Virus record (IMG/VR): IMGVR_UViG_2529292890_000002
Location: 1-26,412 of that record
Reading direction: 5' to 3' (one strand)
DNA: 26,412 nucleotides
Source of the DNA: a virus
Taxonomy: Duplodnaviria > Heunggongvirae > Uroviricota > Caudoviricetes
The position numbers and the translations under genes are program-made. Shown one piece after another: positions 2,536 to 26,412 of this stretch (its first letter is position 1; every line of letters starts with the position of its first letter). Under the pieces are notes generated by a model. That model did no database searches. It saw only the letters and a list, made by a program, of their open reading frames with translations, and was not told the DNA's origin.

Positions 2536-2629
2536 CAACGCCAGTTAAATAGTAATTAAAAAACTGTCTTCACTGTCGTCACTTAATTAAGTGATGGCGC
2601 TTTCACTCATCCTAAAAAGGATAAATAGC

Positions 2630-3064
2630 ATGTTTAATAAACTGTTTGGAAAAAAAGTAGCAGCGGCAAAAGTTGAACTTAAGAAAGTGGAAAATCGCGA
2701 TCTGATGGAAGCTATTGTCGGCGGTTGCCTTTTGGTATCTGCCGCCGATGGCGAGATCGAAAAAGAAGAAACCAGCAAGCTGGATCAGCTTATCCGCTCT
2801 AACCCGCGCCTTGCGCATTTCGGCAATGAAATCACATCCACCATCAACCGCTATACGGAACAGCTTGAAGCTGGCTTCCGCGTTGGCCGCATGAACATTT
2901 TGCGCGAAATCGACGACATCAAAAACGATCCGAAAGAAGCCGAAGAAGTCTTCGTCAACATGCTGACTATCGCCGAAGCGGACGGCCAGATCGAACCGGA
3001 AGAACAGAAGGTGCTGGAAGAGGTAGGGCGCCGTCTGGGGCTGCGTGTTGAGGATTATCTCTGA
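2630..3064 (+). CDS. TerB-like (tellurite-resistance TerB family) domain protein
   Basis: Start at ATG 2630 (MFNKLFGKK, AGGA SD upstream); two ADG-I-E-EE segments (AADGEIEKEE and AEADGQIEPEE) typical of TerB-family helical proteins as recalled. Confidence 0.55.
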   Translation: MFNKLFGKKVAAAKVELKKVENRDLMEAIVGGCLLVSAADGEIEKEETSKLDQLIRSNPRLAHFGNEITSTINRYTEQLEAGFRVGRMNILREIDDIKNDPKEAEEVFVNMLTIAEADGQIEPEEQKVLEEVGRRLGLRVEDYL

Positions 3065-3502: not shown

Positions 3503-4474
3503 ATGATCCGCCCGTTCATCAAATGGGCAGGGGGTAAAACCCGTGTCCTCCCTGACCTGCTGCCGCATCTTCCTAAAGCTGACTGCCTGATCGAACCGTT
3601 CGTAGGCGGCGCATCGGTATTTCTGGCGACTGAATACCGCCGCTATGTGCTGGCTGATATCAACCAGGATCTTATTAACCTGTATCGGGAAGTCACCCGT
3701 TACCCGGACTTAGTGATCGATGCTGCCCGCGAATTGTTCAACAGTAAGAATAGCCCGCAGGGATACAACGAAGTCCGTGCCGCGTTCAATAAGCAGGTGG
3801 GTACGGTAAAAAGCGGTGGGTTGCGTTATGGCGCTGAAATGGCGTGCATTATGCGCGCTGCTCAATTCCTGTATCTGAATCGCCACGGTTATAACGGCTT
3901 ATGTCGATACAGCCGGAAGACCGGCTTTAACGTGCCGTTTGGCAAGTATAAGAGCGTCTACTTTCCTGAAAATGAAATCCGCCTGTTTTCCGAAAAGGCC
4001 AACGATACAAAAGCAATATTTCTTTGTGCGCCGTTCCAGCGTTCTCTACAGGTCGTCACGGGTGGCGATGTTCTCGTTTACTGCGATCCGCCTTACCTGC
4101 CTGAAAGCAAAACAGCCGATTTTACCCAATACCACACCGAACCATTCACGGAAGGCAACCACCGCCAGTTAGTCCAGGCACTGCTGGAAGTTAACCGTAA
4201 GCATGGCGTGAAGGTCGTCATTTCCAACAGCGATACCGAAGCCACCCGCGCGATTTATCAGCCCTTCAAGATGCACGAAATCAGCGTGCAACGTTCCATC
4301 AGCACCGACAAAGACAACCGCCAGAAGGCCAAAGAAGTGATCGGCGTGCTGCCTGTCTGCGACTGCTGCGGGCGTTACGGCGGCGGTTGCCCTGATTGTG
4401 GCGCCGTGATGGGTGATGCGACTTACAACGCGATGGTTGCGGCGGGCGCGTTTGACGATCTGGAGGCTTTTTAA
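3503..4474 (+). CDS. dam: DNA adenine methyltransferase (Dam-like, N6-adenine class) with Cys-rich C-terminal extension
   Basis: N-terminal FIKWAGGK, then EPFVGGASVF (AdoMet-binding) and catalytic DPPY; C-terminal CDCCGRYGGGCPDCG extension. Confidence 0.85.
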   Translation: MIRPFIKWAGGKTRVLPDLLPHLPKADCLIEPFVGGASVFLATEYRRYVLADINQDLINLYREVTRYPDLVIDAARELFNSKNSPQGYNEVRAAFNKQVGTVKSGGLRYGAEMACIMRAAQFLYLNRHGYNGLCRYSRKTGFNVPFGKYKSVYFPENEIRLFSEKANDTKAIFLCAPFQRSLQVVTGGDVLVYCDPPYLPESKTADFTQYHTEPFTEGNHRQLVQALLEVNRKHGVKVVISNSDTEATRAIYQPFKMHEISVQRSISTDKDNRQKAKEVIGVLPVCDCCGRYGGGCPDCGAVMGDATYNAMVAAGAFDDLEAF

Positions 4475-4653: not shown

Positions 4654-7037
4654 CCACGGAAACCCGTGGCCGTCGCGCCCCTTCTCCACCTCCACCGTAT
4701 CCGGGTAGCACTGACAATGCTATCCCTTACGCTTATGGCGGGAACAAACCATACCAGCCGATTGGCGTTGATGTAGCGCCGGGGCTGGATGGTTTCGACT
4801 ATCTCACGCCGGATGGCACGCGTAAGCATATTGCGTTCAGTGAACTGGTAGCGGAAGACGAAAAGCCAGAACGCAGTAAGCTGCTGCGTCGCCGTCTGGC
4901 TTCACTTCCGCAGTATGTTCGCCGCCACTTTGCCGCGAAGCTTGATGCGCTGGACGCGAAAGACCGTAAAGCGGCAGATCACTGGCTGGTTAATACCTTT
5001 GAGCGCCACGTATTAACTCGTATTGATAACGTAAACAGCATTTACCAGCCTGACAGCGTGATGCCCGGTATTCTGCTGCCTATCCGCGATCAGCTTTTCC
5101 GTATTCTCTGGGCGGGAAAAAAAGAGTTAAAAAGACTGGCTTATACGCTTGCCGATATCTTTACGAGCGAGTTTATACGCGAGTCCGATCACCAGTTGGC
5201 GCACACCGGCGATCCAGAGTTTGCGGCACTTTCTGGCTATGGTCGTATTGCGTCGCTGGCGGTGCATCTGAAAACGCCGATTCCCGGCTGGACAGCGTAT
5301 TGCAATGAAGAACTTGAAGCGGAGGACGCGTTACGCGCGGTTCTTCGTCTTGAGTCACCGCAGTGGTGGTTAAACCGCCTGCGTCGTATCCATGCCCGCT
5401 GGCGCGAGCATTTGATGATCGCTACGGGATACGTACAGGTGAAAGCCTCTCCGTACAGTAGCGCACCGTGTCTTACGGAATGGCTGGCCCAGAAAAAGGC
5501 TAACCGTGAATACCTCAAGGCTATGGAACTGGAGGATCAGGACACGGGCGAACGCATTTCACTGATCGATAAAGTCGCCGGCAGTGTTGCCAATCCGGCC
5601 AATCGTCGCCGCGAACTCATGACGAGAATGCGCGGATTTGAAGAACTGGCGAAGCTGGAAGGGCTGGCCGGTGACTTCTACACGCTGACAGCGCCTTCCC
5701 GTTATCACTCTATGCAGCACAATGGTCTTCGCAATAATAAATACCGTGGTGCGTCGCCGCGCGAGACGCAGCAGTATCTTTGCAAAGTCTGGGCGAGAAC
5801 CCGCGCCGCGTGGAAGAGAAAAGGTATCCGGGTCTTTGGCTTTCGTGTGGTGGAACCGCACCACGATGCAACGCCGCACTGGCATTTGCTTCTTTTTATG
5901 CGCCCGGAATGCGTTGAGCAGGCGCGTGAAATCTTCCGTAAACATGCCCTGAAAGAAGACGGCAACGAACCGGGAGCGCAGGAAAACCGCTTTCAGGTTG
6001 TGCCGATCGATGAAGCCCACGGCAGCGCTACCGGCTATATAGCGAAATACATTTCGAAGAATATTGACGGCTTCGCGTTGGATGGCGAGAAGGACGATGA
6101 AACCGGGGAAGATCTGAAAGAAATGTCTCTCCGCGTTAGCGCGTGGGCGTCGCGCTGGTCTATTCGCCAGTTTCAGCAGATCGGCGGTGCGCCGGTCACG
6201 GTATATCGCGAGCTTCGCCGCTTGGGCGATCGCGAACTGGTGTTACACCCTGAACTGGAAACCGCCCGGCAGGCCGCTAACGGTGGCGAATGGGATAACT
6301 ACGTATTAGCCCAGGGTGGCCCGTTGGTTGAGCGCGATAAGCTGCGCATCCGTCTGAATTATGAAACCACTGAAAACGGCAACGCCTACGGCGATAACGT
6401 CCAGCGAATCACCGGTATCTATTGCCCGCTTACGGGTAATAACTCTTTGATCTTCACCCGCACCACTCAATACAAAATCGTGCCGAAGCGTCAGAGCGCT
6501 GACGGTGTGGCCGTTGACGTTGGTTTTTCAGGCGGCAGCGCCGCCCCTCGGAGTTCTGTCAATAACTGTACGCGGGATCCCGCGGCAGGTGCTGACGGTG
6601 TTGAACATGCCGCCAGCGAAGCTAAAGAACAGTCAGGAATGACTGTGCCAGCTGAGGGCGTGACGGTGAATTTTGATGCGCTTTCACGGCAGGAAAAGCG
6701 AGAACTGGCGCAGCGGCTTAGTGACGATGTGCGAAGTAAGCGTAAAAAACGGCCACTGGAACGGGAAGAGGGGGCCGGGCTATCCGTGAAAGAGCAGCAG
6801 ATCAGTGAACTGCTGGCGCTGCGTGGGATTGATGCCAGCGCCGGAATGGTCAGATCGATGATTGCGGGTGCGTCAGTGGCGTGCGGCGATCTTGTTATGA
6901 CCGTGCAGGACGGGCGGCTGGTATCGCGCAACCGCGCAGCGTCCGGGCTGGATAAGCTACCGTCGCAGGTGATGGCGGCGAAGCAAAAAACAAGTGATCT
7001 TGTGAACAGGATGAAAGCAGCATTTTCGCGGAACTAA
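4650..7037 (+). CDS. A: Replication initiation protein A (rolling-circle nicking initiator, P2 gpA-like)
   Basis: 795 aa; HUH-type motif HWHLLLF and paired catalytic tyrosines YIAKYISK (Y-x-x-K-Y); sits between the early genes and the cargo/cos region as in P2. Confidence 0.9.
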   Translation: MTTETRGRRAPSPPPPYPGSTDNAIPYAYGGNKPYQPIGVDVAPGLDGFDYLTPDGTRKHIAFSELVAEDEKPERSKLLRRRLASLPQYVRRHFAAKLDALDAKDRKAADHWLVNTFERHVLTRIDNVNSIYQPDSVMPGILLPIRDQLFRILWAGKKELKRLAYTLADIFTSEFIRESDHQLAHTGDPEFAALSGYGRIASLAVHLKTPIPGWTAYCNEELEAEDALRAVLRLESPQWWLNRLRRIHARWREHLMIATGYVQVKASPYSSAPCLTEWLAQKKANREYLKAMELEDQDTGERISLIDKVAGSVANPANRRRELMTRMRGFEELAKLEGLAGDFYTLTAPSRYHSMQHNGLRNNKYRGASPRETQQYLCKVWARTRAAWKRKGIRVFGFRVVEPHHDATPHWHLLLFMRPECVEQAREIFRKHALKEDGNEPGAQENRFQVVPIDEAHGSATGYIAKYISKNIDGFALDGEKDDETGEDLKEMSLRVSAWASRWSIRQFQQIGGAPVTVYRELRRLGDRELVLHPELETARQAANGGEWDNYVLAQGGPLVERDKLRIRLNYETTENGNAYGDNVQRITGIYCPLTGNNSLIFTRTTQYKIVPKRQSADGVAVDVGFSGGSAAPRSSVNNCTRDPAAGADGVEHAASEAKEQSGMTVPAEGVTVNFDALSRQEKRELAQRLSDDVRSKRKKRPLEREEGAGLSVKEQQISELLALRGIDASAGMVRSMIAGASVACGDLVMTVQDGRLVSRNRAASGLDKLPSQVMAAKQKTSDLVNRMKAAFSRN

Positions 7038-7195
7038 GCCGATATAAGCCGCTCTAAGAAGCAATTACCCATTTTCCACACAATCGAAATAGTTATGACT
7101 TTCGCCGTTTTCTGCTTATAGTGTGCGCGCTTTTGTGTCATAACTAAGCTAATAATAAATGGCATTTCGCTTACACACGCAGTTAGGAGGCTCTT

Positions 7196-8194
7196 ATGAC
7201 GAACCATAATCAGATGAGTCAGATATATTCTAAATTCGGCCGGGCCGGGTTTAATCTCTCTTACATCCGCAGGTTGTTGCCTGACTGGTGGGATGAGAAG
7301 CTTGCTGACACCCCATCAGGGCGCCAGTATGCGTGCCTGCACCTTGCGCGTATGTTTAGCATTCTCCCGGATAGCCTGAAAGATGGTAGCGAAGGGGTAT
7401 GCTTTAATTTTGGTGGAAACCATAAATATAAACATCGCCAAAATGTAGCCGAGAACGATTTAGATATCGCTACTGCTGTTGCCTATACTGCGGCCGGTAT
7501 TGTCGCGTCTAATTTCAAAGTCCCTTACGATGCCAGTGCAGTGCTGGATCCTTTGGCTATAAGAACCCAGATTCTTACTAAGGAATCATGGGTATCGCTA
7601 GATAGCCTGGTAACATACTGTCATTCGATTGGCATTCCTGTTGTTTATCTAAAATGCTTCCCTCAAGCTGCCAAAAAAATGGCCGGGCTGGCGCTAATGA
7701 GTCACGGGCGCCCGGTGATTGTTCTTACTCAGCCTCAGAAATATGGCTATATGCTGTTTGATCTCGCGCATGAGTTAGGCCATATCGCCAGAGGGCATCT
7801 GAACGCAGAAAACGGGCAGTGCCATATTGATGCAAAAATTGAGAATGCTTCGACGGACAACGTAGAGAAAGAAGCCAACGAATTCGCCTTCCAGGTCATT
7901 TCGGGGCAGAAGTCTTTACGTATCGTTCCTACCGCTGGCAGGTTGAATGGGCCTGGTTTGGCTCGCGCGGCTCAAAAGTTTGGAAGTGATAATCACATTG
8001 ACCCGACTCACATCGCTTTAAATTATGGTTTCGCGCAGAACTGCTGGGGCGCTGCTGTTAACGCTGTTAAAGCACTCTGTGCTGGTGAAGACTCAGATCA
8101 GGATTTTGTGAGGGCCATGATGAAAAGCGGGATGGATTTAGAAAATATCCACGAAGATGATCTTAAGGTTTTAGAAAATCTAATCGGGGAATAA
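7196..8194 (+). CDS. Cargo protein with ImmA/IrrE-type (M78-like) HEXXH metallopeptidase motif; N-terminal ~180 aa of unknown function
   Basis: Strong SD AGGAGG 5 nt before ATG; motif MLFDLAHELGHIARGHL; AT-rich by eye; own upstream promoter-like sequence. Confidence 0.6.
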   Translation: MTNHNQMSQIYSKFGRAGFNLSYIRRLLPDWWDEKLADTPSGRQYACLHLARMFSILPDSLKDGSEGVCFNFGGNHKYKHRQNVAENDLDIATAVAYTAAGIVASNFKVPYDASAVLDPLAIRTQILTKESWVSLDSLVTYCHSIGIPVVYLKCFPQAAKKMAGLALMSHGRPVIVLTQPQKYGYMLFDLAHELGHIARGHLNAENGQCHIDAKIENASTDNVEKEANEFAFQVISGQKSLRIVPTAGRLNGPGLARAAQKFGSDNHIDPTHIALNYGFAQNCWGAAVNAVKALCAGEDSDQDFVRAMMKSGMDLENIHEDDLKVLENLIGE

Positions 8195-8197
8195 TAA

Positions 8198-8836
8198 GTG
8201 ATTGTTCTTTCTGACAATGATGTCATTTTGAAGCTGGCCCAGTGCAATCTGTTATCACAACTGCCAGTGGTTTTTAACCAACCCCCCGAACAGATCTTCA
8301 TTAACCCTGCTGCTCGTTTTCAGCTTCTGCCGAAAAATCCTGATAAAGCAATCAGGAAGTGTGGTAGCCAGGTTGTTTACGAGCAGGTGGGAGCCTTCAT
8401 TGAATCTGTACAGGATATCCCGGAAGTTCAGGACTCACAGCTTATTGAGCTTTTGGGGAGTGTGCCCGGAATTGATGTAGGCGAACAGCTATTGCTTGCC
8501 TCGTGCATAGAGAACCCAGAAGCCATTTTCATGACTGGTGATCGCCGCTGTTTGACTGCAATTGTTGCAAACCAACCGGCCCTTTCCGTGATTCATCAGC
8601 GTTTACTGGATGCAGTTGTTACCTTTGAGTCGTCACTTTTGTTATGTGTCCACGGTACAGATCAGGCTCAAGTTTATGAAAATTTGGTGAGCAATCCTAA
8701 ACCTGACGGCATGTTGAAATTGGCTCTTTCAAACGCTGGCGCTGCAATGTGCGAATGTATCTTTTCCCATACTCGTGAGTTTTACGATTACCTTGCCTTC
8801 AAAGATCGACTTCCTGATCGGGAGTGGGGAAGGTAA
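8198..8836 (+). CDS. Cargo partner protein of unknown function (possible PIN-like fold, speculative)
   Basis: GTG start 3 nt after the upstream stop with GGGGA upstream; 212 aa; N-terminal IVLSDNDVILKL plus later acidic residues (IDVGEQ, FMTGDRR) loosely resemble PIN nucleases; followed by a terminator. Confidence 0.5.
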   Translation: MIVLSDNDVILKLAQCNLLSQLPVVFNQPPEQIFINPAARFQLLPKNPDKAIRKCGSQVVYEQVGAFIESVQDIPEVQDSQLIELLGSVPGIDVGEQLLLASCIENPEAIFMTGDRRCLTAIVANQPALSVIHQRLLDAVVTFESSLLLCVHGTDQAQVYENLVSNPKPDGMLKLALSNAGAAMCECIFSHTREFYDYLAFKDRLPDREWGR

Positions 8837-8842
8837 AAAATT

Positions 8843-8866
8843 AAGGGCTAACAAAGCCCTTTTTTA
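8843..8866 (+). terminator. Rho-independent terminator closing the cargo operon
   Basis: Stem AAGGGCT (8843-8849), loop AACAA, stem AGCCCTT (8855-8861), then a T-run (8860-8865); A-run upstream could allow bidirectional function. Confidence 0.6.
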
Positions 8867-8890
8867 TTGCGCCAAAAACACTGCAAAAAA

Positions 8891-8980
8891 TTGCACATAA
8901 ATGCACAAATATTTCGGCATTCGTATTATCACGACAGGCCAGACGGGGCGGGCCTTCCGGTGGTTTGCACATTTGCACAA
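8891..8980. repeat. Two copies of a TTGCACA-N-TGCACAA motif (8891-8908 and 8965-8980) flanking the cos-like site; candidate packaging or regulatory protein sites
   Basis: Seen directly: TTGCACATAAATGCACAA and TTGCACATTTGCACAA. Confidence 0.4.
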
Positions 8981-16895: not shown

Positions 16896-16970
16896 TTTTA
16901 ATTGTGCTGGCCGTGCGTATCGAGCGCGGTCATTTTTGACAGTGCTCCAGCACGTCCGGTATTGACGGTG
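16896..16970. repeat. Copy 1 of a ~70-bp direct repeat, with internal sub-repeats GGTCATTTTT-N-GTGCT and a GTGCT-CC-AGCAC dyad
   Basis: Hand alignment to 22981-23055: a 21-bp identical core GTGCTGGCCGTGCGTATCGAG plus about 46 further positions at roughly 70% identity (about 80% overall). Confidence 0.7.
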
Positions 16971-18782: not shown

Positions 18783-19412
18783 ATGAATTTAAACGAACTC
18801 TATCGCCTTATCTGCAATCTCGCCCGCATTGGCACCGTGCTGGAAGTGAATACGGAAAAGTACCTTGCGCGCGTCGAAACAGGCGAGAACAAAACCGACT
18901 GGATCCGCTGGGCAGTGCCGCGCGCCGGTGAAGCCGTGACGTGGTGGGCGCCGACAGTGGGCGAACAGGTTTATATTTTGTGCCCCTGCGGTGAGATGGA
19001 AACGGCATTCATTGCCGGAAGCCTTTACAGCGAAGACGCACCGCCGCCAGATGCTGGCGCTACCACCTGCGTGATCTTGCACCCGGATGGCGCCCGTATC
19101 TCATATGACCCGGAGGCCAGCGCGCTGGTTGTCAGCGGGGTGAAAACGGCAAGCGTCACCGCGTCGGAATCCATTACCGCCACCGTGCCGGTGGTAACGG
19201 TCAAGGCAGATACGCGCGTTACCCTGGACACGCCGGAAGTGGTCTGCACCAACAAGCTGATCACCGCCACGCTGGAAGTACAAAACGGCGGGGAAATGAA
19301 GGGCAATATTACCCATTCAGGCGGATCGCTTTCGTCTAATGGTGTCGTTGTCCATTCGCACAAACATAGTGGCGTTCAGTCCGGTGGCAGTAATACAGGT
19401 GGCCCGGTATGA
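18783..19412 (+). CDS. V: Baseplate assembly / spike protein V (P2 gpV-like)
   Basis: 209 aa; Gly/Ser-rich C-terminus HSHKHSGVQSGGSNTGGPV; position and resemblance to P2 gpV as recalled. Confidence 0.85.
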   Translation: MNLNELYRLICNLARIGTVLEVNTEKYLARVETGENKTDWIRWAVPRAGEAVTWWAPTVGEQVYILCPCGEMETAFIAGSLYSEDAPPPDAGATTCVILHPDGARISYDPEASALVVSGVKTASVTASESITATVPVVTVKADTRVTLDTPEVVCTNKLITATLEVQNGGEMKGNITHSGGSLSSNGVVVHSHKHSGVQSGGSNTGGPV

Positions 19413-19771
19413 GTACAGTCCGTTACAGCGGCATGAATGCCAGTTCAGGCCATGCCATCACCGACAACGAGCATATAGCGCAGTCTATCGGCGATATTCT
19501 GTTAACGCCGATCGGTTCCCGTGTAATGCGCCGCGCTTACGGTTCGCAGCTTTTCAACCTGATAGATCAGCCGGTCGATAACGCCATAACGAAGCTGCGC
19601 GTTATGTCTGCTATCTACAGCGCCCTGTATTTATGGGAACCGCGGATCTCTCTGACCAGTATCACCCTGAGCGCGCCGGGTGCCGGTCGGCTGGTTGCCA
19701 CTATCCAGGCCAATCGCACTGACAATCAGACGCCATTTAACGCCGATATCACATTGAGGGGCCAGGCATGA
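19409..19771 (+). CDS. W: Baseplate wedge protein W (GPW/gp25 family)
   Basis: 120 aa; start overlaps the V stop (ATGA); resemblance to gp25-like baseplate proteins as recalled. Confidence 0.85.
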   Translation: MSTVRYSGMNASSGHAITDNEHIAQSIGDILLTPIGSRVMRRAYGSQLFNLIDQPVDNAITKLRVMSAIYSALYLWEPRISLTSITLSAPGAGRLVATIQANRTDNQTPFNADITLRGQA

Positions 19772-20679
19772 GCGGCACGATCGATTTATCACAGCTACCG
19801 CCGCCCGTGGTGGTTGAACCGCTGGACTTCGAAACGCTTTTCGCGCAGCGCAAGGCCGCATTTATTGCGATGTACCCGGAAGACGAACAGGAAGAGATCG
19901 CCCGCACGCTTGAGCTTGAATCGGAGCCGATCACCATGCTGCTGGAAGAAAATTGCTATCGCGAATTGCTGTTGCGCCAGCGGGTGAATGAAGCGGCCCG
20001 CGCGGTGATGCTGGCTTATTCCACAGATAGCGATCTGGATAATCTGGCGGTCAATTTCAACGTTGAACGTCTGACCATTCAGGAGGAAGACGACAGCGTT
20101 ACCCCGCCAATTGAAGCCGTGATGGAGTCAGACGCGGATTTACGCACGCGTACCCAGCAGGCGTTTGAAGGTCTGAGCGTGGCCGGGCCAACGGCGGCGT
20201 ATGAATTTTGGGGGCGTTCGGCTGACGGGCGCGTAGCTGATATTTCGGCGGTCAGTCCTACGCCTGCCTGCGTCACCATTTCGGTGCTGTCGCGTGAGGG
20301 TGACGGAACGGCCAACGATGATCTGCTTTCCGTGGTCGCTGCTGCCCTGAACGATGAAGAGGTGCGCCCGGTGGCCGACAGGGTAACGGTGCAGTCTGCG
20401 GAGATCGTGCCGTATCAGATCGATGCAACGCTTTACATCTATCCGGGGCCGGAAGCCGAACCCGTCCGGCAGGCATCGGAGCAACAGTTACAGGCGTATA
20501 TTGCCGCGCAGAATCGCTTAGGGCGTGATATCCGTCTTTCAGCTATCTACGCCGCCCTGCACGTCGAAGGCGTCCAGCGCGTGGAACTGGCGCAGCCTGT
20601 TGCGGATATCGTGCTGAGTGACTACCAGGCATCGCACTGCACCGAATACACCATAACGGTGGGTGGTTACGATGAGTAA
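19768..20679 (+). CDS. J: Baseplate assembly protein J
   Basis: 303 aa; start overlaps the W stop; position between W and I as in P2. Confidence 0.85.
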   Translation: MSGTIDLSQLPPPVVVEPLDFETLFAQRKAAFIAMYPEDEQEEIARTLELESEPITMLLEENCYRELLLRQRVNEAARAVMLAYSTDSDLDNLAVNFNVERLTIQEEDDSVTPPIEAVMESDADLRTRTQQAFEGLSVAGPTAAYEFWGRSADGRVADISAVSPTPACVTISVLSREGDGTANDDLLSVVAAALNDEEVRPVADRVTVQSAEIVPYQIDATLYIYPGPEAEPVRQASEQQLQAYIAAQNRLGRDIRLSAIYAALHVEGVQRVELAQPVADIVLSDYQASHCTEYTITVGGYDE

Positions 20680-21286
20680 TGACCTGTTACCACCCAGCGC
20701 CAGCCGAATGGAGAGAGTCGCCGCGCGCGTCTGTGCGTCGTTGGGTGAAGTGCCCGTGCCGCTGCGTCAGTTGTGGAACCCGTGGACGTGTCGGGCTGAT
20801 CTGCTGCCCTATCTGGCGTGGGCCTTCTCCGTTGATCGCTGGGATGAGTCCTGGCCGATCAGCACGAAGCGTAAGGCGGTAGCCGATGCGTTCTACCTGC
20901 ATAAGTACAAGGGTACAACGGGCGCCATGCGCCGGGTTGTGGAGCCGTTCGGCTTCTTCATCCGGGTTAACGAGTGGTGGAACATCGACACCGCACCAGG
21001 CACTTTCACGCTGGATATTGGGGTGGAAGACCAGGGCATTAGTGAAGAAACCTATCAGGAGCTTGAACGCCTGATCGCCGATGTGAAGCCGTGCAGCCGT
21101 CATATGCTGGGAATGTCTCTTCACCTGCAAACAACTGGCGATTTGTATATCGGCGCGGGCAGTTATTCCGGCGATACGCTGACCGTATACCCGTATTTCC
21201 CTGAAACCATAGCCGTGGGCGGTGATGATTACACCGGGGCGGCAATCCATTTAATTGACACCGTGGAGATCGCAAGTGGCGACTAA
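20672..21286 (+). CDS. I: Tail / baseplate protein I
   Basis: Start at ATG 20672 (alternative GTG 20663); about 204 aa; position between J and H. Confidence 0.8.
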   Translation: MSNDLLPPSASRMERVAARVCASLGEVPVPLRQLWNPWTCRADLLPYLAWAFSVDRWDESWPISTKRKAVADAFYLHKYKGTTGAMRRVVEPFGFFIRVNEWWNIDTAPGTFTLDIGVEDQGISEETYQELERLIADVKPCSRHMLGMSLHLQTTGDLYIGAGSYSGDTLTVYPYFPETIAVGGDDYTGAAIHLIDTVEIASGD

Positions 21287-22358
21287 ATATTATGCCGTGC
21301 TAACCAATGTGGGCGCAGCGAAACTGGCAAATGCCACGGCATTGGGTGCGCAGGTTGAGATCACCCAGATGGCTGTAGGCGATGGTAACGGCGCATTGCC
21401 GACGCCGAACCCGGCACAAACGGCGCTGGTTCATGAGTTGCGCCGCGCGCCACTCAATACCCTGAGCATTGATCCGAACAACGCCAACCAGATTATTGCC
21501 GAACAGGTGATCCACGAAGACGTGGGCGGGTGGTGGATCCGTGAAATCGGCTTATTCGATAAAGACGGCGATATGATTGCCGTAGCCAACTGCGCGGAAA
21601 CCTATAAGCCGCAGTTGCAGGAAGGTAGCGGGCGCGTTCAGATTGTCCGCATGATCCTGATAGTCAGCAGCACCGCCGCCGTGACTCTGAAAATTGACCC
21701 TTCGGTAGTGCTGGCAACGCGCCAGTATGTTGATGATCAGATAATCCAGGTGAAAGCCTATGTTGATCAGCAACTGGCGGCGCATGTGGCTGCGGCTGAT
21801 CCTCATGCGCAATATTTGCTTGAGTCGGATTTTGATAAATTTTTCCCGGTAGGTTTTCCGCTTCCGTGGCCGCAGGCAACGCCGCCAGGCGGCTGGCTTA
21901 AATGCAATGGTGCAACGTTCGATAAGGTCAAATATCCGAAGCTGGCGACGGCTTACCCTTCTGGCGTATTACCAGATTTGCGCGGTGAGTTTTTGAGAGG
22001 TTGGGATGATGGGCGTGGGGTTGATGTAAACCGAGTATTGTTAAGTTCCCAGAGTGAGGATTTAAAGGGCCATCGGCATGAGTCCTATTTCTATGCGGGG
22101 ATCAGCAGAAATGAAGTGCCTTTAACTAGCTTGGATAGTTCGTGTGAAATGCTAACATTAAGCTCAACAACCAATGCACTCGCACCAACGGATATAGATA
22201 CCAGCGGCACTCTTATCGGTAATGATGATTATAACTGTCTGGCCGAAGGTAATAAAAACAACAAACGAACTGCAACAGGATTAAGTTCCACCATTGTAGG
22301 TGGAGGCGAAACTCGTCCGCGAAACGTATCATTTAATTATATCGTGAGGGCTGCATAA
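21276..22358 (+). CDS. H: Tail fibre protein H (short, about 360 aa) with AT-rich distal part
   Basis: Start at GTG 21276 (GGAG 7 nt upstream; track's first codon is TTG at 21255); N-terminus ATKYYAVLTNVGAAKLANA...MAVGDGNG resembles the conserved P2 gpH N-terminus as recalled. Confidence 0.75.
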   Translation: MATKYYAVLTNVGAAKLANATALGAQVEITQMAVGDGNGALPTPNPAQTALVHELRRAPLNTLSIDPNNANQIIAEQVIHEDVGGWWIREIGLFDKDGDMIAVANCAETYKPQLQEGSGRVQIVRMILIVSSTAAVTLKIDPSVVLATRQYVDDQIIQVKAYVDQQLAAHVAAADPHAQYLLESDFDKFFPVGFPLPWPQATPPGGWLKCNGATFDKVKYPKLATAYPSGVLPDLRGEFLRGWDDGRGVDVNRVLLSSQSEDLKGHRHESYFYAGISRNEVPLTSLDSSCEMLTLSSTTNALAPTDIDTSGTLIGNDDYNCLAEGNKNNKRTATGLSSTIVGGGETRPRNVSFNYIVRAA

Positions 22359-22954
22359 TGACGCAGGCAGAATTAAACAGCGAACTTATTGCTACTGTGG
22401 CAGGTGATATCACGGTATTCAATTACGATGGGGAAACACGCGAATATTTAACTTCAATGGTTGAATATCTGGCGGAAGGTGTTGGCCTTCCTGCAAATTC
22501 ATGCACCGATGCGCCAAGCGAAAGTAAAGAGGGATTTGCTATTTGTCGAACAGCAGATTTTACCGCATGGGAATACGTCGCCGATCACCGTGGTGAAACG
22601 GTATACAGCACTAAAACAGGCGAATCGGAGATCGTTTCTTTGCCTGGCGATTACCCGGAGGGTACTACCACGCTGGCACCTTCGACACCTTACGATACGT
22701 GGAACGGTAGCGAGTGGGTAACAGATACGGAAACGCAGCACGCGGCGGACGTGGAAGCGGCGGAGCAACAGAAAGCTGCGCTACTCCTTGAGGCGCAGGC
22801 AACGATCAGTCTATGGCAGACGGAGCTACAGTTAGGCATTATCAGCGATGAAGATAAAGCCAGCCTGATCGCCTGGATGAACTACATCAAAGCCGTGCAG
22901 GCGGTGGATACCTCGAAAGCGCCGGATATCACCTGGCCGGATAAGCCGGAATAA
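22358..22954 (+). CDS. G: Tail fibre assembly protein G (Tfa-like)
   Basis: 198 aa; start overlaps the H stop (TAATG); directly downstream of the fibre gene. Confidence 0.8.
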   Translation: MTQAELNSELIATVAGDITVFNYDGETREYLTSMVEYLAEGVGLPANSCTDAPSESKEGFAICRTADFTAWEYVADHRGETVYSTKTGESEIVSLPGDYPEGTTTLAPSTPYDTWNGSEWVTDTETQHAADVEAAEQQKAALLLEAQATISLWQTELQLGIISDEDKASLIAWMNYIKAVQAVDTSKAPDITWPDKPE

Positions 22955-22980
22955 GTTTTCATTCCGGCACGCATGGCCGG

Positions 22981-23055
22981 TTCTAACCGTGCTGGCCGTG
23001 CGTATCGAGTACAGTCATTTTTAACGGTGCTGTAGCACGGTCAGTTATGGCGGTG
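22981..23055. repeat. Copy 2 of the ~70-bp direct repeat, in the convergent G/U intergenic region
   Basis: Aligns to 16896-16970 (identical 21-bp core GTGCTGGCCGTGCGTATCGAG; GTGCT-GT-AGCAC dyad). Confidence 0.7.
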
Positions 23056-23071
23056 TGTTCCGGAAGACGAA

Positions 23072-23093
23072 GCGGGCAAAGGCCCGCTTTTCT
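23072..23093 (+). terminator. Rho-independent terminator at the convergent G/U junction (likely bidirectional)
   Basis: Stem GCGGGC, loop AAAG, stem GCCCGC, then TTTTCT; A-rich GAAGACGAA on the 5' side. Confidence 0.6.
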
Positions 23094-23542
23094 TATATCG
23101 AAAGGTTGGTTTTCACCAGAGAGAAGAGATCGTCGATGGTCGTTTCGGCCAGCTTTTCCCGTATGTCCTCGCTTACCCGTTTCAGGTTGAGCGTAAAATC
23201 AATTTTCTTTGCCTTCCCGTCCTTAAAAAACTCCGTCCGGTTTTGTGTGATCTGCTCAATTACATACATGCCGTAGATCCTGCCCGTGCCTTCTATCAGG
23301 GGCCACGGGCGCCCGGAAAAAGCCATAGTTTCCAGCATGACAAGCGACACATCACCGCCGCTTATTTCGGGGTACAGCGTGCCGCTGAGTACGAACGGTT
23401 CTTCATCTGCGCCGATGAACTGATAGCGCGGGGATTTCCCCACGCGATCGTTTTTGACGTGCCGCCAGGAGTTGGTTTTATTCGCACTCTGGTAAGGCGT
23501 GGTTTGCAGTGAAAAGGGGAACATCCCCAGAATCATCATCAT
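23093..23542 (-). CDS. U: Tail protein U (P2 gpU-like)
   Basis: 149 aa beginning MMMILGMFPFSLQTTPYQ, with SGTLYPEISGG and GMYVIEQI resembling P2 gpU as recalled; directly downstream of the tape-measure gene on the minus strand. Confidence 0.85.
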   Translation of the reverse strand: MMMILGMFPFSLQTTPYQSANKTNSWRHVKNDRVGKSPRYQFIGADEEPFVLSGTLYPEISGGDVSLVMLETMAFSGRPWPLIEGTGRIYGMYVIEQITQNRTEFFKDGKAKKIDFTLNLKRVSEDIREKLAETTIDDLFSLVKTNLSI

Positions 23543-23552
23543 GATATTGCCC

Positions 23553-26412
23553 TTAGACGTGATCGGTCAGTTGGGAACGCTTGCGCCGGTCGGCCTGCTG
23601 CTTCGCTAACGCAAGTTCTTCGCGCACGCGCCTGATAATAGTTTCTTCATCCAGTTTCTGGCCGCTAAAGTCGAAGTTAAGGTTATATACATCGCCGCCC
23701 GGCGCAGGCATGAGCGCAGCGACGGAAGCCGCAGACGGCGACGCCGAAACGGGCACCCGTGCGGCGGGCTTCTCAACCTGCCACGGCGTAACGGAAGCGA
23801 TCAGCGATCCGGCCTGCTGCGTCACCCAATCGGTAAGGGATGGTAGCTGGCGCTGCGCCTGCTTAAGCGGTTCCGAATATCCGCCACGGATCGGGATATA
23901 GGGTTGCTTATTCTTGAAGACGATTTCGCCGGGCCCGTCTTTCTTCTCCGTGGTATTGGTGGCGATCTTGTCCAGGCTACTGCTCATCTTCGGCACGATG
24001 TTGGCCGGGCCTTTGAGCGAGTTAATCAGGTTGTCCTGTTTTTTCTGCTTATCGGTTTTCTTTTTCTCTTCGGCTTTTTTACTTTCCTTCGCGACTGCCT
24101 GCACGTCACCGGAAAAGGCGTTAACCCGGTCTGCCAGATTGTTGACCGCTTCCGGCGTCATTTGCTGCGCAACCTGCTGCGCTGCTTTCGCTGCGTCGGG
24201 AATGGCGCCCAGCTTTTCCAGAATCCAGCCCAGCCCTTTGGCTACGGCCTGAATAGGTAGCGTCAGCGCGCTGATTGCGGCACCTACAACCTTGCCGAAC
24301 GTTTCCCCGGCACTTGTGCAGGATGCCAGCGCTTCATTGGAAAACTGGATCGGTTCCAGCAGTTTGGTAAACCACTCCCAGACGCCGCTGATCGCGTTGC
24401 CGATACTGTCAAAAATCGGGGCCAGCGGTGCAAATACGGCGTTAAATGCCTGCGTGATAGGTTGAAGGCCAGCCATCAGCCCGGTAAAGAACCCGCTGAA
24501 AAATGCCTTAATCGGTTGCCAGAATTTAATGACGGCCACTGCTGCCGCAGCAAAGAGCGCAATCAGCCCCCAGACGGGCGCAGAAATGCCAGCCAGTAGA
24601 GTGATAAGCGGGCCGAATACCATGCGACCGGCGCTTAACAATGCCTGCATAGGCGAGCCAGCAAGCCACTGAAACGCACCACCCAGGCGCATTACTCCAC
24701 CAGTCAGCCGCGCTATTCCTCCTTCACCGGCCAACGTGGTGAAACTGAGGCGAACAAGTGCCATCGGGCCGAGAACTGCGCCGATGGACAGCATCAGGCC
24801 ACCCACGACAACCAGCAACGCGCCTATGGCTGCGGTGACTTTCATGATTGAGCCAACCAGAGCAGGGTTAGCCTCAACCCAGCGGCGGACGCTGCCAACC
24901 ACCTTACTGACGGTAAGCATGATATCCATCAGTGGTTCGCGGAGCGTTTCCCCTGCTGAACTGAATGCGTTAACCGCGCCGGTTTTGGTCAATTGCCACT
25001 GAGCAGAAAGGGAAGCTTTGTTGATATCAGATTCCCGATTCATGGAACCTTTAGCGGCTGCGCCCTGCGTCAGTTCTATCTGGCGGCGTAGTTCGGGCAG
25101 GTTGTTGGCAAGTTTCTGCGCGTCGTCGCCGAACTCTTTGCCGAAAATCTGGGTAAGGTTGGCTACCTGCTGATCCGGGGCCAGTTTTTTGGACGCTTCC
25201 AGCACTGAAATAATTGTGCCCATCGCGTCCACTGACATGCTCTTCTGAACTTTTTCGGCGCTGAGGCCGAGGGCGTCCAGACCCTGCATAAAGTTTTTGC
25301 CCTGAACCGTAGCGATTGAGAGTTCGCGCACCATTGCATTGGTGGCGCTGGCGGCAACTTCGGCAGGGGTGCCGAGCGTCAGAAAGGTGGAACCCAGCGC
25401 GGCGGCTTGCTTGTAATCCAGTTGGCTGGCAAGCCCCCCAACGCGCTGGAGTACGTCGATAATATCGGAGCCTTTAGACTTCGCGTTATCGTCCAGGTAG
25501 TTAATGGCGTCTCCCAACTGCTCAATATTCTGCGTGGGGATCTTGTACAGCCCGGCGATTTTACCGAGGCTTTCAGAAAGCTGATCGGCGGGAAGTTCGA
25601 AGGCAACAGAAGCCTTTGCCGCCATACTGGCGAAGGACAGCAGATCGGCTTTTTGCTTTTGCCACGGATCATCGCTGTTTGCTACGCCCATGCGCGCACC
25701 GCCTTCGACCAGGGCGGCATAGTCAACAGCGCCGTTAGCCATTGGTAGCTTTTCGCTGGCATCCATGATCGCCCGCTGCATTTCTTCATACTGCGGGGTT
25801 CGGTTGCCGCTGTCGTCACGCAAGCCGTTTACCTGTTTGGCTACGCCTTTCATGGCGTCTTCAAGGCTGCTGTAGGATTTAACCGCAGCGGCGACAGGTG
25901 CGAGGGTTGCCGCCCCTACTGCGGCGGTTTTCAACCCCCCGCTCATCATCTTTTCGCCGGTTTCTTTGGCGCGGCTGTAACGGGCCTGCGCCTGGTTAAC
26001 AGCGTCAAGCCGTCGTTGCTGTTCGGCAAGCTGGCGGTTGTATTGCGCGGTGCGCTGGTTGATCTGTTCCGTCGCCCGGCTGGCGCTGCTGATCGCAATG
26101 CCTTCGCTGTAGAAACTGGCGCGCAACTGGTTAAGTTGCGTCTGCTCGCCTTTCTGCTGCTGGGTTAACTGGCGAATGGCTGCACGTTGCTGATTGAGGG
26201 CGGCAACCTGTTCGGCGCTGCGCTGGCGTAACGGGCCATAAGCCGCCGCCATTTGCCGGGCCTGTTCTTTCGCCTGGGCCAGTTGTTCGGTGGTTTTTTT
26301 ATTGGCTGCGGTGAGGCGGTCGAAGCTGGTTGCCTGACGCTCAAGCCCTTTAATGCTGGTTTTGGTCTGATTGATTTGAGACGCCAACGCGGCGGCACTC
26401 TGGCGCGCCGCG
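23553..26412 (-). CDS. T: Tail tape-measure protein (gpT-like), 5'-truncated by the window edge
   Basis: At least 952 codons with no stop to the window end (the track's TTG at 26387 is not the true start); Ala/Gln-rich N-terminal region, long hydrophobic Gly/Ala/Leu-rich central segment, typical of tape-measure proteins. Confidence 0.85.
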   Translation of the reverse strand, partial: AARQSAAALASQINQTKTSIKGLERQATSFDRLTAANKKTTEQLAQAKEQARQMAAAYGPLRQRSAEQVAALNQQRAAIRQLTQQQKGEQTQLNQLRASFYSEGIAISSASRATEQINQRTAQYNRQLAEQQRRLDAVNQAQARYSRAKETGEKMMSGGLKTAAVGAATLAPVAAAVKSYSSLEDAMKGVAKQVNGLRDDSGNRTPQYEEMQRAIMDASEKLPMANGAVDYAALVEGGARMGVANSDDPWQKQKADLLSFASMAAKASVAFELPADQLSESLGKIAGLYKIPTQNIEQLGDAINYLDDNAKSKGSDIIDVLQRVGGLASQLDYKQAAALGSTFLTLGTPAEVAASATNAMVRELSIATVQGKNFMQGLDALGLSAEKVQKSMSVDAMGTIISVLEASKKLAPDQQVANLTQIFGKEFGDDAQKLANNLPELRRQIELTQGAAAKGSMNRESDINKASLSAQWQLTKTGAVNAFSSAGETLREPLMDIMLTVSKVVGSVRRWVEANPALVGSIMKVTAAIGALLVVVGGLMLSIGAVLGPMALVRLSFTTLAGEGGIARLTGGVMRLGGAFQWLAGSPMQALLSAGRMVFGPLITLLAGISAPVWGLIALFAAAAVAVIKFWQPIKAFFSGFFTGLMAGLQPITQAFNAVFAPLAPIFDSIGNAISGVWEWFTKLLEPIQFSNEALASCTSAGETFGKVVGAAISALTLPIQAVAKGLGWILEKLGAIPDAAKAAQQVAQQMTPEAVNNLADRVNAFSGDVQAVAKESKKAEEKKKTDKQKKQDNLINSLKGPANIVPKMSSSLDKIATNTTEKKDGPGEIVFKNKQPYIPIRGGYSEPLKQAQRQLPSLTDWVTQQAGSLIASVTPWQVEKPAARVPVSASPSAASVAALMPAPGGDVYNLNFDFSGQKLDEETIIRRVREELALAKQQADRRKRSQLTDHV

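Follow-up and report, generated by a model that had tools for sequence, protein, structure and literature searches.

The tail fibres of P2-family phages are mosaic, with a conserved 5' part joined to an exchanged 3' part (Haggard-Ljungquist et al. 1992, as cited in PMC8986868), and recombination hot spots have been documented in them (PMC8986868). A modular model is also documented for the tail fibre assembly chaperones (Tfa) of the Mu Tfa/lambda gpK family, which consist of two domains: the C-terminal one is conserved, and the N-terminal one, which binds the fibre, is variable and non-conserved in the Mu and Pam3 models (PMC9608196). In P2, gpH carries an anchor domain (PF12571) and is encoded after J and I, with the Tfa (gpG) immediately downstream.

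Other relevant fibres are those of T4. Both gp12 and gp37 are knitted trimers that bind metal (Zn and Fe, respectively); the needle of gp37 contains several HxH motifs, and the T4 fibre chaperones are gp57A and gp38. The Zn ligands of gp12 are His445 and His447, situated on the threefold axis (PMC3004832). The term "collar domain", used below for the T4-type fold, denotes another structure in Ur-lambda work, the N-terminal ring of Stf (PMC12617516).

The window (the whole stretch of viral DNA analysed, 26,412 nt) presents the P2 arrangement. H is surrounded by a complete complement of P2-type late genes, and the order is Baseplate_J (19768-20679), Tail_P2_I (20663-21286), H and Caudo_TAP (gene G), which places H in the gpH position. 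An opposite-strand FI-FII-E-T-U block, with U at 23093-23542 and T at 23553-26387 (both - strand), converges on G in the same order as in Salmonella phage SEN4 (Peduoviridae, Senquatrovirus) and in E. coli relatives; the backbone is 94% identical at nucleotide level to SEN4 and SEN5 through gene I and aa 1-153 of H. However, the H gene of SEN4 encodes 546 aa and is followed by a macro-domain gene, whereas the window encodes a shaftless H of 360 aa in which, unlike in SEN4 or P2 gpH, a small head on a gp12/gp37-type collar forms the distal module. H very probably serves a Senquatrovirus-like (P2-family) prophage as a short, trimeric and functional receptor-binding fibre, in which four modules are nested.

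H occupies 21276-22358 (+ strand), exactly where the original prediction had placed a protein of about 360 aa. It starts with GTG, at the position annotated as the start in relatives, 9 nt downstream of a ribosome-binding site (GGAG, 21264-21267), and its first 11 nt also belong to the 3' end of gene I, as in the annotation of relatives; the TAA stop of H shares a TAATG overlap with the start of G. The first module is the N-terminal anchor (21276-21725, aa 1-150), which the prediction had likened to conserved fibre anchors: it matches the whole Pfam profile PF12571, "Phage tail-collar fibre protein, N-terminal" (positions 1-150 of 150, E=1.2e-65, 220.5 bits against a cut-off of 23), and thus is a P2 gpH-type attachment domain, 92-98% identical at nucleotide level to that of same-lineage prophages. 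It would plug into the baseplate beside gpI and gpJ. The second module is a short neck (21726-21815, aa 151-180) terminating in an AAADPHxQY junction at aa 180. The identical protein with the same neighbours was found by exact look-up on at least 24 public contigs of E. coli, Salmonella and Enterobacter, under the name "phage tail-collar fiber domain-containing protein" (Enterobacterales), and E. coli and Salmonella isolates have it as EGB76018.1; the list of homologues of the C-terminal half does not contain it, the best match there being 79%.

Comparison with relatives by blastn reveals three homology breakpoints in H, at 21815, 22012-22025 and 22311-22317. Same-lineage (Senquatrovirus-like) prophages are 96% identical up to 21815, which is the breakpoint common to all those with other distal modules; the alignments end at 21814/21815 in loci L002, L003 and L006, and those with many E. 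coli genomes stop at 1207/1216 of the query. In L001 and L004 the identity of 96% is kept through the first part of the collar domain (21816-22025, aa 181-250, ending in LPDLRGEFLRGWDDGRGVD) and is lost at 22012-22025. The next segment, 22026-22316 (aa 251-347), is unalignable with same-lineage prophages, and its flanks are 93-97% identical to theirs. Homology to L001, L004 and L005 is back at 22311-22317 and covers the last 13 residues of H, a conserved C-terminal strand (22317-22358, PRNVSFNYIVRAA plus stop), and the Tfa gene. Along the sequence, identity to L001 is 90-98%, then 7-43% in the head (as also with L004 and L005; 68-78% with L007), then 83-100%, and each break is abrupt, taking about 10-20 nt. 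Both flanks of the cassette are conserved nucleotide islands, …TGGGATGATGGGCGTGG… on the left and …TTTAAyTAyATyGTGAGGGCnGCATrATG on the right.

At least six unrelated head cassettes stand on near-identical anchors and collars (L001, L004, L005, P0124, P0126 and the window). Head lengths in the lineage are 73-96 aa, and the head of the window is 16-30% identical in amino acids to same-lineage heads, as against 67-79% elsewhere. With heads on other P2-like backbones and on a fibre of a Mu-type baseplate its identity is 72-79%. These discontinuities support the mosaic receptor-binding module that had been proposed, and neither uniform composition nor colinear homology to one fibre family is seen at the nucleotide level. 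Because the mosaic is nested, the proposal needs refinement: the anchor is indeed conserved and the distal part exchanged, but the final 13 residues are conserved too, so that the supposed swapped distal half is an internal cassette and not the C-terminus.

The head in the window belongs to a type, "HRHESYFYAG", whose other carriers are different P2-like backbones and fibres associated with Mu-type baseplates. The H protein of the prophage in E. coli FDAARGOS_1253 is likewise 360 aa long, in canonical P2 gene order, and its head has the same length with 79% identical amino acids; however, its anchor and backbone differ from those of the window (gene I is 63% identical at nucleotide level). P0016, a 275-aa fibre of Mu-type-baseplate prophages, has a head of the same length (71-74% aa identity) but another anchor and a backbone of Mu gp44-48-type baseplate genes; an invertase is adjacent to the 275-aa fibre with the same head type (74% aa). 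The three heads share the pattern "HRHESYFYAG…DDYNC…ETRPRN", whereas the Tfa N-domains of the FDAARGOS_1253 and P0016 relatives are only 60-63% identical to that of the window. A near-identical donor of the head was not found among the matches, the best of which reach 79% in amino acids and 74% in nucleotides.

The third module is the collar, recognised by the Pfam family Collar (PF07484) at aa 193-240 (49.9 bits against a cut-off of 24), which identifies H as a collar fibre. The T4 gp37 tip (2XGF) matches H with E=4.2e-20, including the HxH and C-terminal motifs, and there are further matches to gp12 (1OCY, 1PDI, 5IV5) and to the short fibre of phiTE (9CUY). His266-Arg-His268 (22071-22079, + strand) is aligned with KAHSHS of the gp37 tip and is a candidate metal site on the trimer axis; it is invariant in 13 homologues and absent from the head cassettes of L001, L004 and L005 on the same collar. 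By analogy with the T4 fibres, this motif of H may bind metal. On the other hand, H has a single HxH, unlike gp37, and its excursion of about 96 aa has no detectable similarity to the heads of gp37 or gp12. The C-terminus, ETRPRNVSFNYIVRAA, is aligned weakly with those of gp12 (12.9 bits, i-Evalue 0.4) and gp37 (3.8 bits), with …N(I/V)xFNYIVR as the aligned motif, and this strand presumably returns to the collar. The gp12 receptor-binding domain (PF14928) remains below threshold in H (18.1 against 23.8 bits, aa 313-358 only). An AlphaFold2 monomer of aa 181-360, built from a 13-sequence alignment, was unusable (mean pLDDT 36, pTM 0.32), so the out-and-back topology proposed here rests on the sequence alignment to gp37 and gp12.

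According to this topology, the collar (aa 181-250) would be closed by the final 13 residues, and the fourth module (aa 251-347, with the HxH) would be an excursion of about 96 residues, presumably the distal, receptor-contacting tip. The chain would leave the collar and re-enter it, and as both collar-coding flanks are conserved in nucleotides, homologous recombination with co-resident phages or prophages could replace the head alone. Such a swap would alter receptor specificity and leave anchor and collar in place, together with the Tfa, whose translation is coupled. In the window a "HRHESYFYAG" head stands with the collar and Tfa of the resident lineage.

The Tfa is encoded by G (22358-22954, + strand, 198 aa), directly 3' of the fibre gene. 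Its N-domain covers approximately aa 1-80 and its C-domain, Caudo_TAP, aa 78-198 (PF02413, E=4.9e-36, 124.2 bits against a cut-off of 22.1); the precomputed domains are Caudo_TAP_N and Caudo_TAP, and Mu Tfa (5yvq_B) matches aa 133-198 with E=3.2e-8. The chaperone is therefore a Tfa of lambda/Mu type, homologous to Mu Tfa and lambda gpK in its C-terminal domain and unlike those of T4. The original prediction had the tip and its Tfa exchanged together, and one may suppose that the distal fibre and its cognate Tfa moved as a single tract from about 22026 to the Tfa C-domain (about 22770). The fibre-binding role and non-conservation of the N-domain in the Mu and Pam3 models would agree with this, as would a stretch of low third-position GC (GC3) that covers both the head and the Tfa N-domain. 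Besides, identity to L001 is 82-92% over 22358-22777 and 98-100% beyond. However, colinearity with L001 is restored from 22317 on, over the final 13 codons of H and into the beginning of G, and in the Tfa N-domain all relatives show low GC3, whatever their head type. With L001, identity is 97% in the collar, 16% in the head and 91% in the Tfa N-domain, whereas with L007 the corresponding values are 90%, 79% and 60%. Joint transfer is therefore improbable, and the prediction was not borne out on this point.

Across nine loci, compared in non-independent pairs, no co-variation of the Tfa N-domain with the head was found (Spearman -0.30); its identity follows that of the collar (+0.40) and of the Tfa C-domain (+0.79). 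This differs from what is described for Mu Tfa and lambda gpK, and suggests that the N-domain reads constant features of the tip. Since homology returns at 22317 and continues through the Tfa gene, the head cassette was transferred without its Tfa. An older exchange may have taken in part of the Tfa, since the nucleotide identity of G to L001, 93.6% overall, falls to 83% in the N-domain, with outer flanks at 96-100%.

A mosaic short fibre of P2 type is an ordinary structure of an already known kind, and represents a textbook route to a change of host range. Its discovery value is little: mosaic fibres of the P2 family have been known since 1992, the protein is catalogued, and the Pfam families and structures involved are long known. 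A more general reading is put forward tentatively, with the balance leaning against it: the collar-type tip could be a plug-and-play scaffold in which heads of 73-96 aa are exchanged alone between the GRGVD and ETRPRN junctions, one Tfa type serving all of them by reading the collar and the C-terminal strand. If true, it would depart from the usual view, in which a tip is transferred together with the Tfa N-domain that it needs. In practice the locus is of modest value: it shows natural nucleotide-level junctions, one following …RGWDDGRGVD and one preceding ETRPRNxxFNYIVRAA, where heads differing in specificity have been exchanged with anchor, collar and Tfa kept, and these could be of use in engineering the host range of P2-type phages, tailocins or transducing particles.

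Base composition had drawn attention to this gene, the last 350 nt or so of H (about 22020-22360) having been described as AT-rich and as encoding an Asn/Ser/Thr-rich segment. Both observations hold: the head cassette has a GC of 0.433 and a GC3 of 0.371 (z=-3.1 in a scan of the late-gene region, 9.2-26.4 kb, by 291-nt windows), compared with 0.556 and 0.617 for aa 1-180 of H and a GC3 of 0.676 for gene I, and Asn, Ser and Thr make up 33% of aa 251-347 as against 14% of aa 1-180 and 9% of aa 181-250. The end at the H stop does not hold, because the trough extends over 22005-22600 (GC 0.43-0.46 and GC3 0.34-0.38; flanks 0.55-0.57 and 0.62-0.68). It spans the head cassette, the C-terminus of H and the Tfa N-domain (aa 1-80 of G, GC 0.458, GC3 0.338), continuing about 240 nt past H and recovering near 22600. 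All equally low 291-nt windows of the late-gene region fall within 22005-22544, which makes it the sole such trough there.

It might be argued that no exchange took place, and that a vertically inherited gene has become AT-rich through the codons of Asn, Ser, Thr, Lys and Ile and through fast divergence of a surface-exposed tip, which is to be expected. The richness of the segment in Asn, Ser and Thr agrees with this, and GC at the first two codon positions also decreases slightly, from 0.52 to 0.46. Nevertheless, the drop in GC3 (from 0.62-0.68 to 0.37) is far larger, so amino-acid composition by itself is insufficient to explain the AT-richness. The abrupt breaks and the unalignable same-lineage heads speak against gradual divergence, and dN/dS values of 0.06-0.14 among heads of this type indicate purifying selection and not fast adaptive change. 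A head 79% identical on a backbone whose gene I is only 63% identical is an incongruence that contradicts vertical descent, and this explanation is very unlikely. Low GC was also considered as proof of recent foreign import and rejected: the GC3 trough across collar, head and Tfa N-domain is common to nine of nine compared loci, of any head type or phage backbone, so the AT-richness is no evidence for recent import. It is a generic property of the module family and gives no date for the swap. A contig scan with the head peptide for a low-GC donor gave only three weak or irrelevant loci, in Erwinia dacicola (31%), Sodalis (13 residues) and Nostoc.

H is much shorter than its counterparts in L006 (514 aa) and SEN4, and it has no shaft repeats, from which one could deduce a degenerate, shaft-deleted remnant in a defective prophage. 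However, the reading frame is intact, with its ribosome-binding site and coupling to the Tfa, among a complete set of late genes, and short fibres of 322-360 aa recur on independent backbones (L001, L003, L004, L005, L007). A pseudogene or deletion remnant was rejected, given the purifying selection on the head and the exact protein on the public contigs already mentioned, and there is scarcely any likelihood left for it. Least probable of all, and almost negligible, is diversification of the tip in situ by an invertible segment (Mu G, P1 C or e14 P, with Gin, Cin or Pin) or a diversity-generating retroelement: a recombinase and inverted Tfa/fibre fragments do adjoin H in L002, L006, L009 and L013, but just 138 nt separate G from U in the window, no ORF for an invertase or an inverted second Tfa/fibre fragment lies between them, the cassette is not flanked by any inverted or direct repeat of at least 14 nt in a repeat search around H and G, and the cassettes are unrelated and of differing lengths, unlike the products of retroelement mutagenesis.

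No Rfam family was found in the whole window and no promoter in 22300-23200; two terminator-like hairpins were seen in the latter interval, with no excess over chance. Downstream of G there is a conserved 75-nt hairpin-forming element (22981-23055, + strand), a second copy of which lies at 16896-16970. Relatives whose Tfa or cargo modules are of another kind become homologous again at 22961-22981, so this element marks the right limit of the variable slot of the lineage.

Comparison of the tail-fibre gene H of the window with its relatives supports a nested mosaic in which an internal cassette (22026-22316, aa 251-347; the head, presumed to contact the receptor) has been exchanged, the Tfa chaperone was not co-transferred and low GC is no date stamp. 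The gene content of the window is that of a P2-family prophage. The integrase gene (132-1112) and the genes for a D12 methyltransferase, replication, portal and terminase lie on the minus strand, and capsid, lysis and tail genes follow on the plus strand, including the baseplate genes J (19768-20679, Baseplate_J) and I (20663-21286, Tail_P2_I), H itself (21276-22358, 360 aa) and G (22358-22954, Caudo_TAP), which encodes Tfa. U (23093-23542) and the tape-measure gene T (23553-26387) are on the minus strand and converge on G; this opposite-strand arrangement (23093-26387), extended to E, FII and FI in relatives, differs from that of phage P2. A local rearrangement is ruled out, as SEN4 (a Salmonella phage of the genus Senquatrovirus, Peduoviridae) and several E. 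coli prophages that are 94-97% identical to the window over J-I and the 5' part of H normally have the same inverted FI-to-U order, which is characteristic of the Senquatrovirus lineage.

H starts at a GTG (21276) with GGAG nine bases upstream and overlaps I by 11 nt, in agreement with the PGAP annotation of relatives, and its TAA overlaps the ATG of G (TAATG). The coordinates proposed in the original prediction are exact, and the conserved N-terminal anchor that it described corresponds to PF12571 (tail-collar fibre protein, N-terminal domain), whose whole profile covers residues 1-150 (E=1.2e-65). A short neck, with AAADPHAQY (aa 172-180) at its end, leads to the Collar domain PF07484 (aa 193-240, 49.9 bits vs a cut-off of 24), and PF14928, the gp12 receptor-binding domain, scores 18.1 bits at aa 313-358, below its cut-off of 23.8. 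The best solved-structure match is the receptor-binding tip of T4 gp37 (2xgf, E=4e-20, aa 182-270), in which LKGHRHES of H aligns with VKAHSHSA of gp37; a second, weak piece places GGGETRPRNVSFNYIVRAA of H on the C-terminal NIAFNYIVRLA of gp37. The chain of gp37 and gp12 exits the collar, builds a distal needle or head and then runs back to the collar, where it terminates. In H, aa 251-347 may by analogy form a similar out-and-back excursion making the distal tip. T4 gp12 (1ocy, 1pdi, 5iv5) and the phiTE short fibre (9cuy, a code appearing in PMC11972413) give the same two-piece match. In gp12 the collar comprises residues 342-397, and the three chains each contribute His445 and His447 to a metal site on the threefold axis (PMC3004832); H266-R-H268 is, by analogy, a candidate axial metal site. 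The AlphaFold2 monomer model (pLDDT 36) was unusable.

Two residues of H differ from those of its relatives. Codon 290 (22143-22145) encodes Cys (DSSCEM) in the window vs Asp (PSSDEM) in all other heads of the type, and it is the second cysteine of the head, besides the invariant one of DDYNC. Codon 79 (21510-21512), within the motif VI(P)EDVGG, encodes His; Pro stands at this position in all nine relatives compared and in most members of the cluster. The presence of the His allele on 18 public contigs rules out a sequencing error.

The limits of the exchange were located by blastn of 19001-23600 against six E. coli prophages, belonging either to the same lineage or to related ones. From 19001 as far as the DPHxQY junction at 21814/21815, identity to every same-lineage relative is about 96-97%, and in TOK-001 (L001) and SWYHX138 (L004) an identity of 96% goes on through the collar to 22012-22025. 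None of the same-lineage relatives among these prophages matched 22026-22316. Homology is back at 22311-22317; in TOK-001 it runs at 93.6% across G and as far as U. When codons were compared with this prophage in sliding windows, identity was 90-98% as far as 21995, fell to 7-43% between 22056 and 22295, and was 83-100% beyond 22358.

The head is found on other backbones. A distant blastn with the 291 nt rules out an orphan sequence: among 5,426 complete E. coli genomes, 109 contain relatives that are 60-80% identical. The best (73.9% over the whole 291-nt query) belongs to FDAARGOS_1253 (L007), a P2-like prophage of canonical gene order whose gene I is only 63% identical in nucleotides to that of the window, and whose H, also of 360 aa, has a head 79% identical in amino acids. 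Heads of this type also occur on longer P2-type fibres of 452-454 aa (L008 and L009, the latter adjoining a recombinase) and on fibres of 291 and 319 aa whose N-termini are different again. A fibre of 275 aa has such a head with 71-74% amino acid identity; its gene follows baseplate genes of the Mu gp44-48 type and lies beside an invertase. Conversely, the heads borne by the near-identical anchor and collar of the lineage are of at least six unrelated kinds, 73-96 aa long (the window, L001, L004, L005 and the cluster members P0124 and P0126). The phylogenetic incongruence is clear and supports the predicted mosaic receptor-binding module. The exchange of a distal half is supported as an exchange, but the mosaic is nested and the head is an internal cassette. 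Its flanks are short islands of nucleotide conservation in all backbones (left …TGGGATGATGGGCGTGG…; right …TTTAAyTAyATyGTGAGGGCnGCATrATG), which could support homologous recombination of the cassette.

A minor rival is that head and Tfa were imported as one block, and the tip and its chaperone had indeed been expected to move together. Segment-wise amino acid identities over nine loci argue against it: TOK-001 has a head of 16% identity to that of the window, yet a collar of 97% and Tfa N- and C-domains of 91% and 96%, whereas in FDAARGOS_1253 the head is 79% identical (collar 90%) and the Tfa domains 60% and 69%. L006 and L009 share 93% in the collar, 25% in the head and 76% and 90% in the Tfa domains. 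As a description of non-independent pairs from the nine loci, identity in the Tfa N-domain does not go with that in the head (Spearman -0.30) but with that in the collar (+0.40) and in the Tfa C-domain (+0.79). In favour of the block import, G is only 82-92% identical to its TOK-001 counterpart over 22358-22777, vs 98-100% beyond, a weaker signal that part of Tfa may have an older history. In these alignments the latest exchange that can be seen is that of the head alone, without the chaperone.

That P2, Mu, P1, lambda and T-even phages exchange tail-fibre segments has long been known (Haggard-Ljungquist et al. 1992, as cited in PMC8986868), and recombination hot spots have been reported in P2-family H genes (PMC8986868). 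The H mosaic is a well-known kind of feature, and its exact sequence is already public. The single slight departure from expectation is the decoupling of the Tfa N-domain from the head, whereas in the two-domain model from the Mu and Pam3 complexes a variable N-domain binds the fibre and the C-domain is conserved (PMC9608196). The match of G to Mu Tfa (5yvq) is confined to the C-domain. A tentative proposal, at somewhat less than even probability, is that the head alone is the exchangeable module and is served by a generalist Tfa; if Tfa reads the constant collar or the C-terminal strand, the collar tip would be a natural plug-and-play scaffold.

The AT-rich, Asn/Ser/Thr-rich distal segment is present as predicted: GC and GC3 are 0.556 and 0.617 in aa 1-180 of H and 0.433 and 0.371 in 22026-22316, and Asn, Ser and Thr make up 33% of aa 251-347 vs 9-14% in other parts of H. 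The trough had been placed at the end of H, but it runs on for about 240 nt into the Tfa gene, with values of 0.458 and 0.338 in the first 80 codons of G and a recovery to 0.556 and 0.636 in the remainder. When the late-gene region is scanned in windows of 291 nt, the dip stands at z=-3.1, and every window so low lies within 22005-22544. GC1+2 (0.46 vs 0.52) falls far less than GC3, so the dip is more than amino acid composition. The trough does not mark a recent import into the prophage, since collar, head and Tfa N-domain show the GC3 trough in all nine loci, whatever the head type, on Senquatrovirus-like, canonical P2-like and Mu-type backbones (head 0.30-0.45, Tfa N-domain 0.33-0.54, neighbouring baseplate gene 0.58-0.71). 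Low GC3 is therefore a property of the module family, as would fit a long time spent circulating in a gene pool that is wider or lower in GC; a search for a low-GC donor among species-representative genomes gave nothing useful.

In-situ switching of the tip, for which some relatives do carry features, is excluded at the window locus because the H-G locus has no invertase, second inverted Tfa or flanking repeats. Finally, H is neither an assembly artefact nor a decayed remnant: the exact 360-aa protein, flanked by the same genes, is on at least 24 contigs (34 index blocks), independent backbones repeatedly carry short fibres of 322-360 aa, and the head, with dN/dS of 0.06-0.14 vs homologues at dS near saturation, is by this ratio under purifying selection. 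Catalogue entries for the exact protein, which come from E. coli, Salmonella enterica serovars and Enterobacter, name it 'phage tail protein / phage tail-collar fiber domain-containing protein'.

The cassette lies in a larger variable slot, from 21815 to about 22980, since relatives carry cargo or switching genes between H and U: an acyltransferase after Tfa in SWYHX138 (L004 5308-6399), a macro-domain protein between H and Tfa in SEN4 (L019 9314-10138) and a serine recombinase in AR_0128 (L002 7343-7924). In relatives whose Tfa or cargo modules are different, homology resumes at 22961-22981, so the right border is marked by a 75-nt element present in two copies of 79% identity, one between the M15 endolysin-like and DUF2514 genes (16896-16970) and the other just downstream of G (22981-23055), and found at equivalent positions in L001, L002 and L006. 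Both copies fold as a long imperfect hairpin on the plus strand (z=-2.4 and -4.5) and had no match in Rfam; a terminator or attenuator, an RNA stabiliser and a recombination anchor are candidate roles.

Elsewhere in the window, a low-GC (0.45-0.48) two-gene insert (6941-8958) lies between the replication and portal genes, presumably the usual P2 accessory or defence hot spot. Its first ORF (7196-8194, plus strand) has an M78/IrrE-type peptidase domain (E=1e-7) and weak PADLOC matches to PD-Lambda-2_B, CapP and RmrA; the second (8198-8836, plus strand) is without a family match, and the two are possibly an anti-phage cargo pair. The early region has a second low-GC stretch (1855-2848), followed by a TerB-domain ORF (2591-3064, E=3e-14) and the D12-class adenine methyltransferase gene (3503-4474, E=2e-62).
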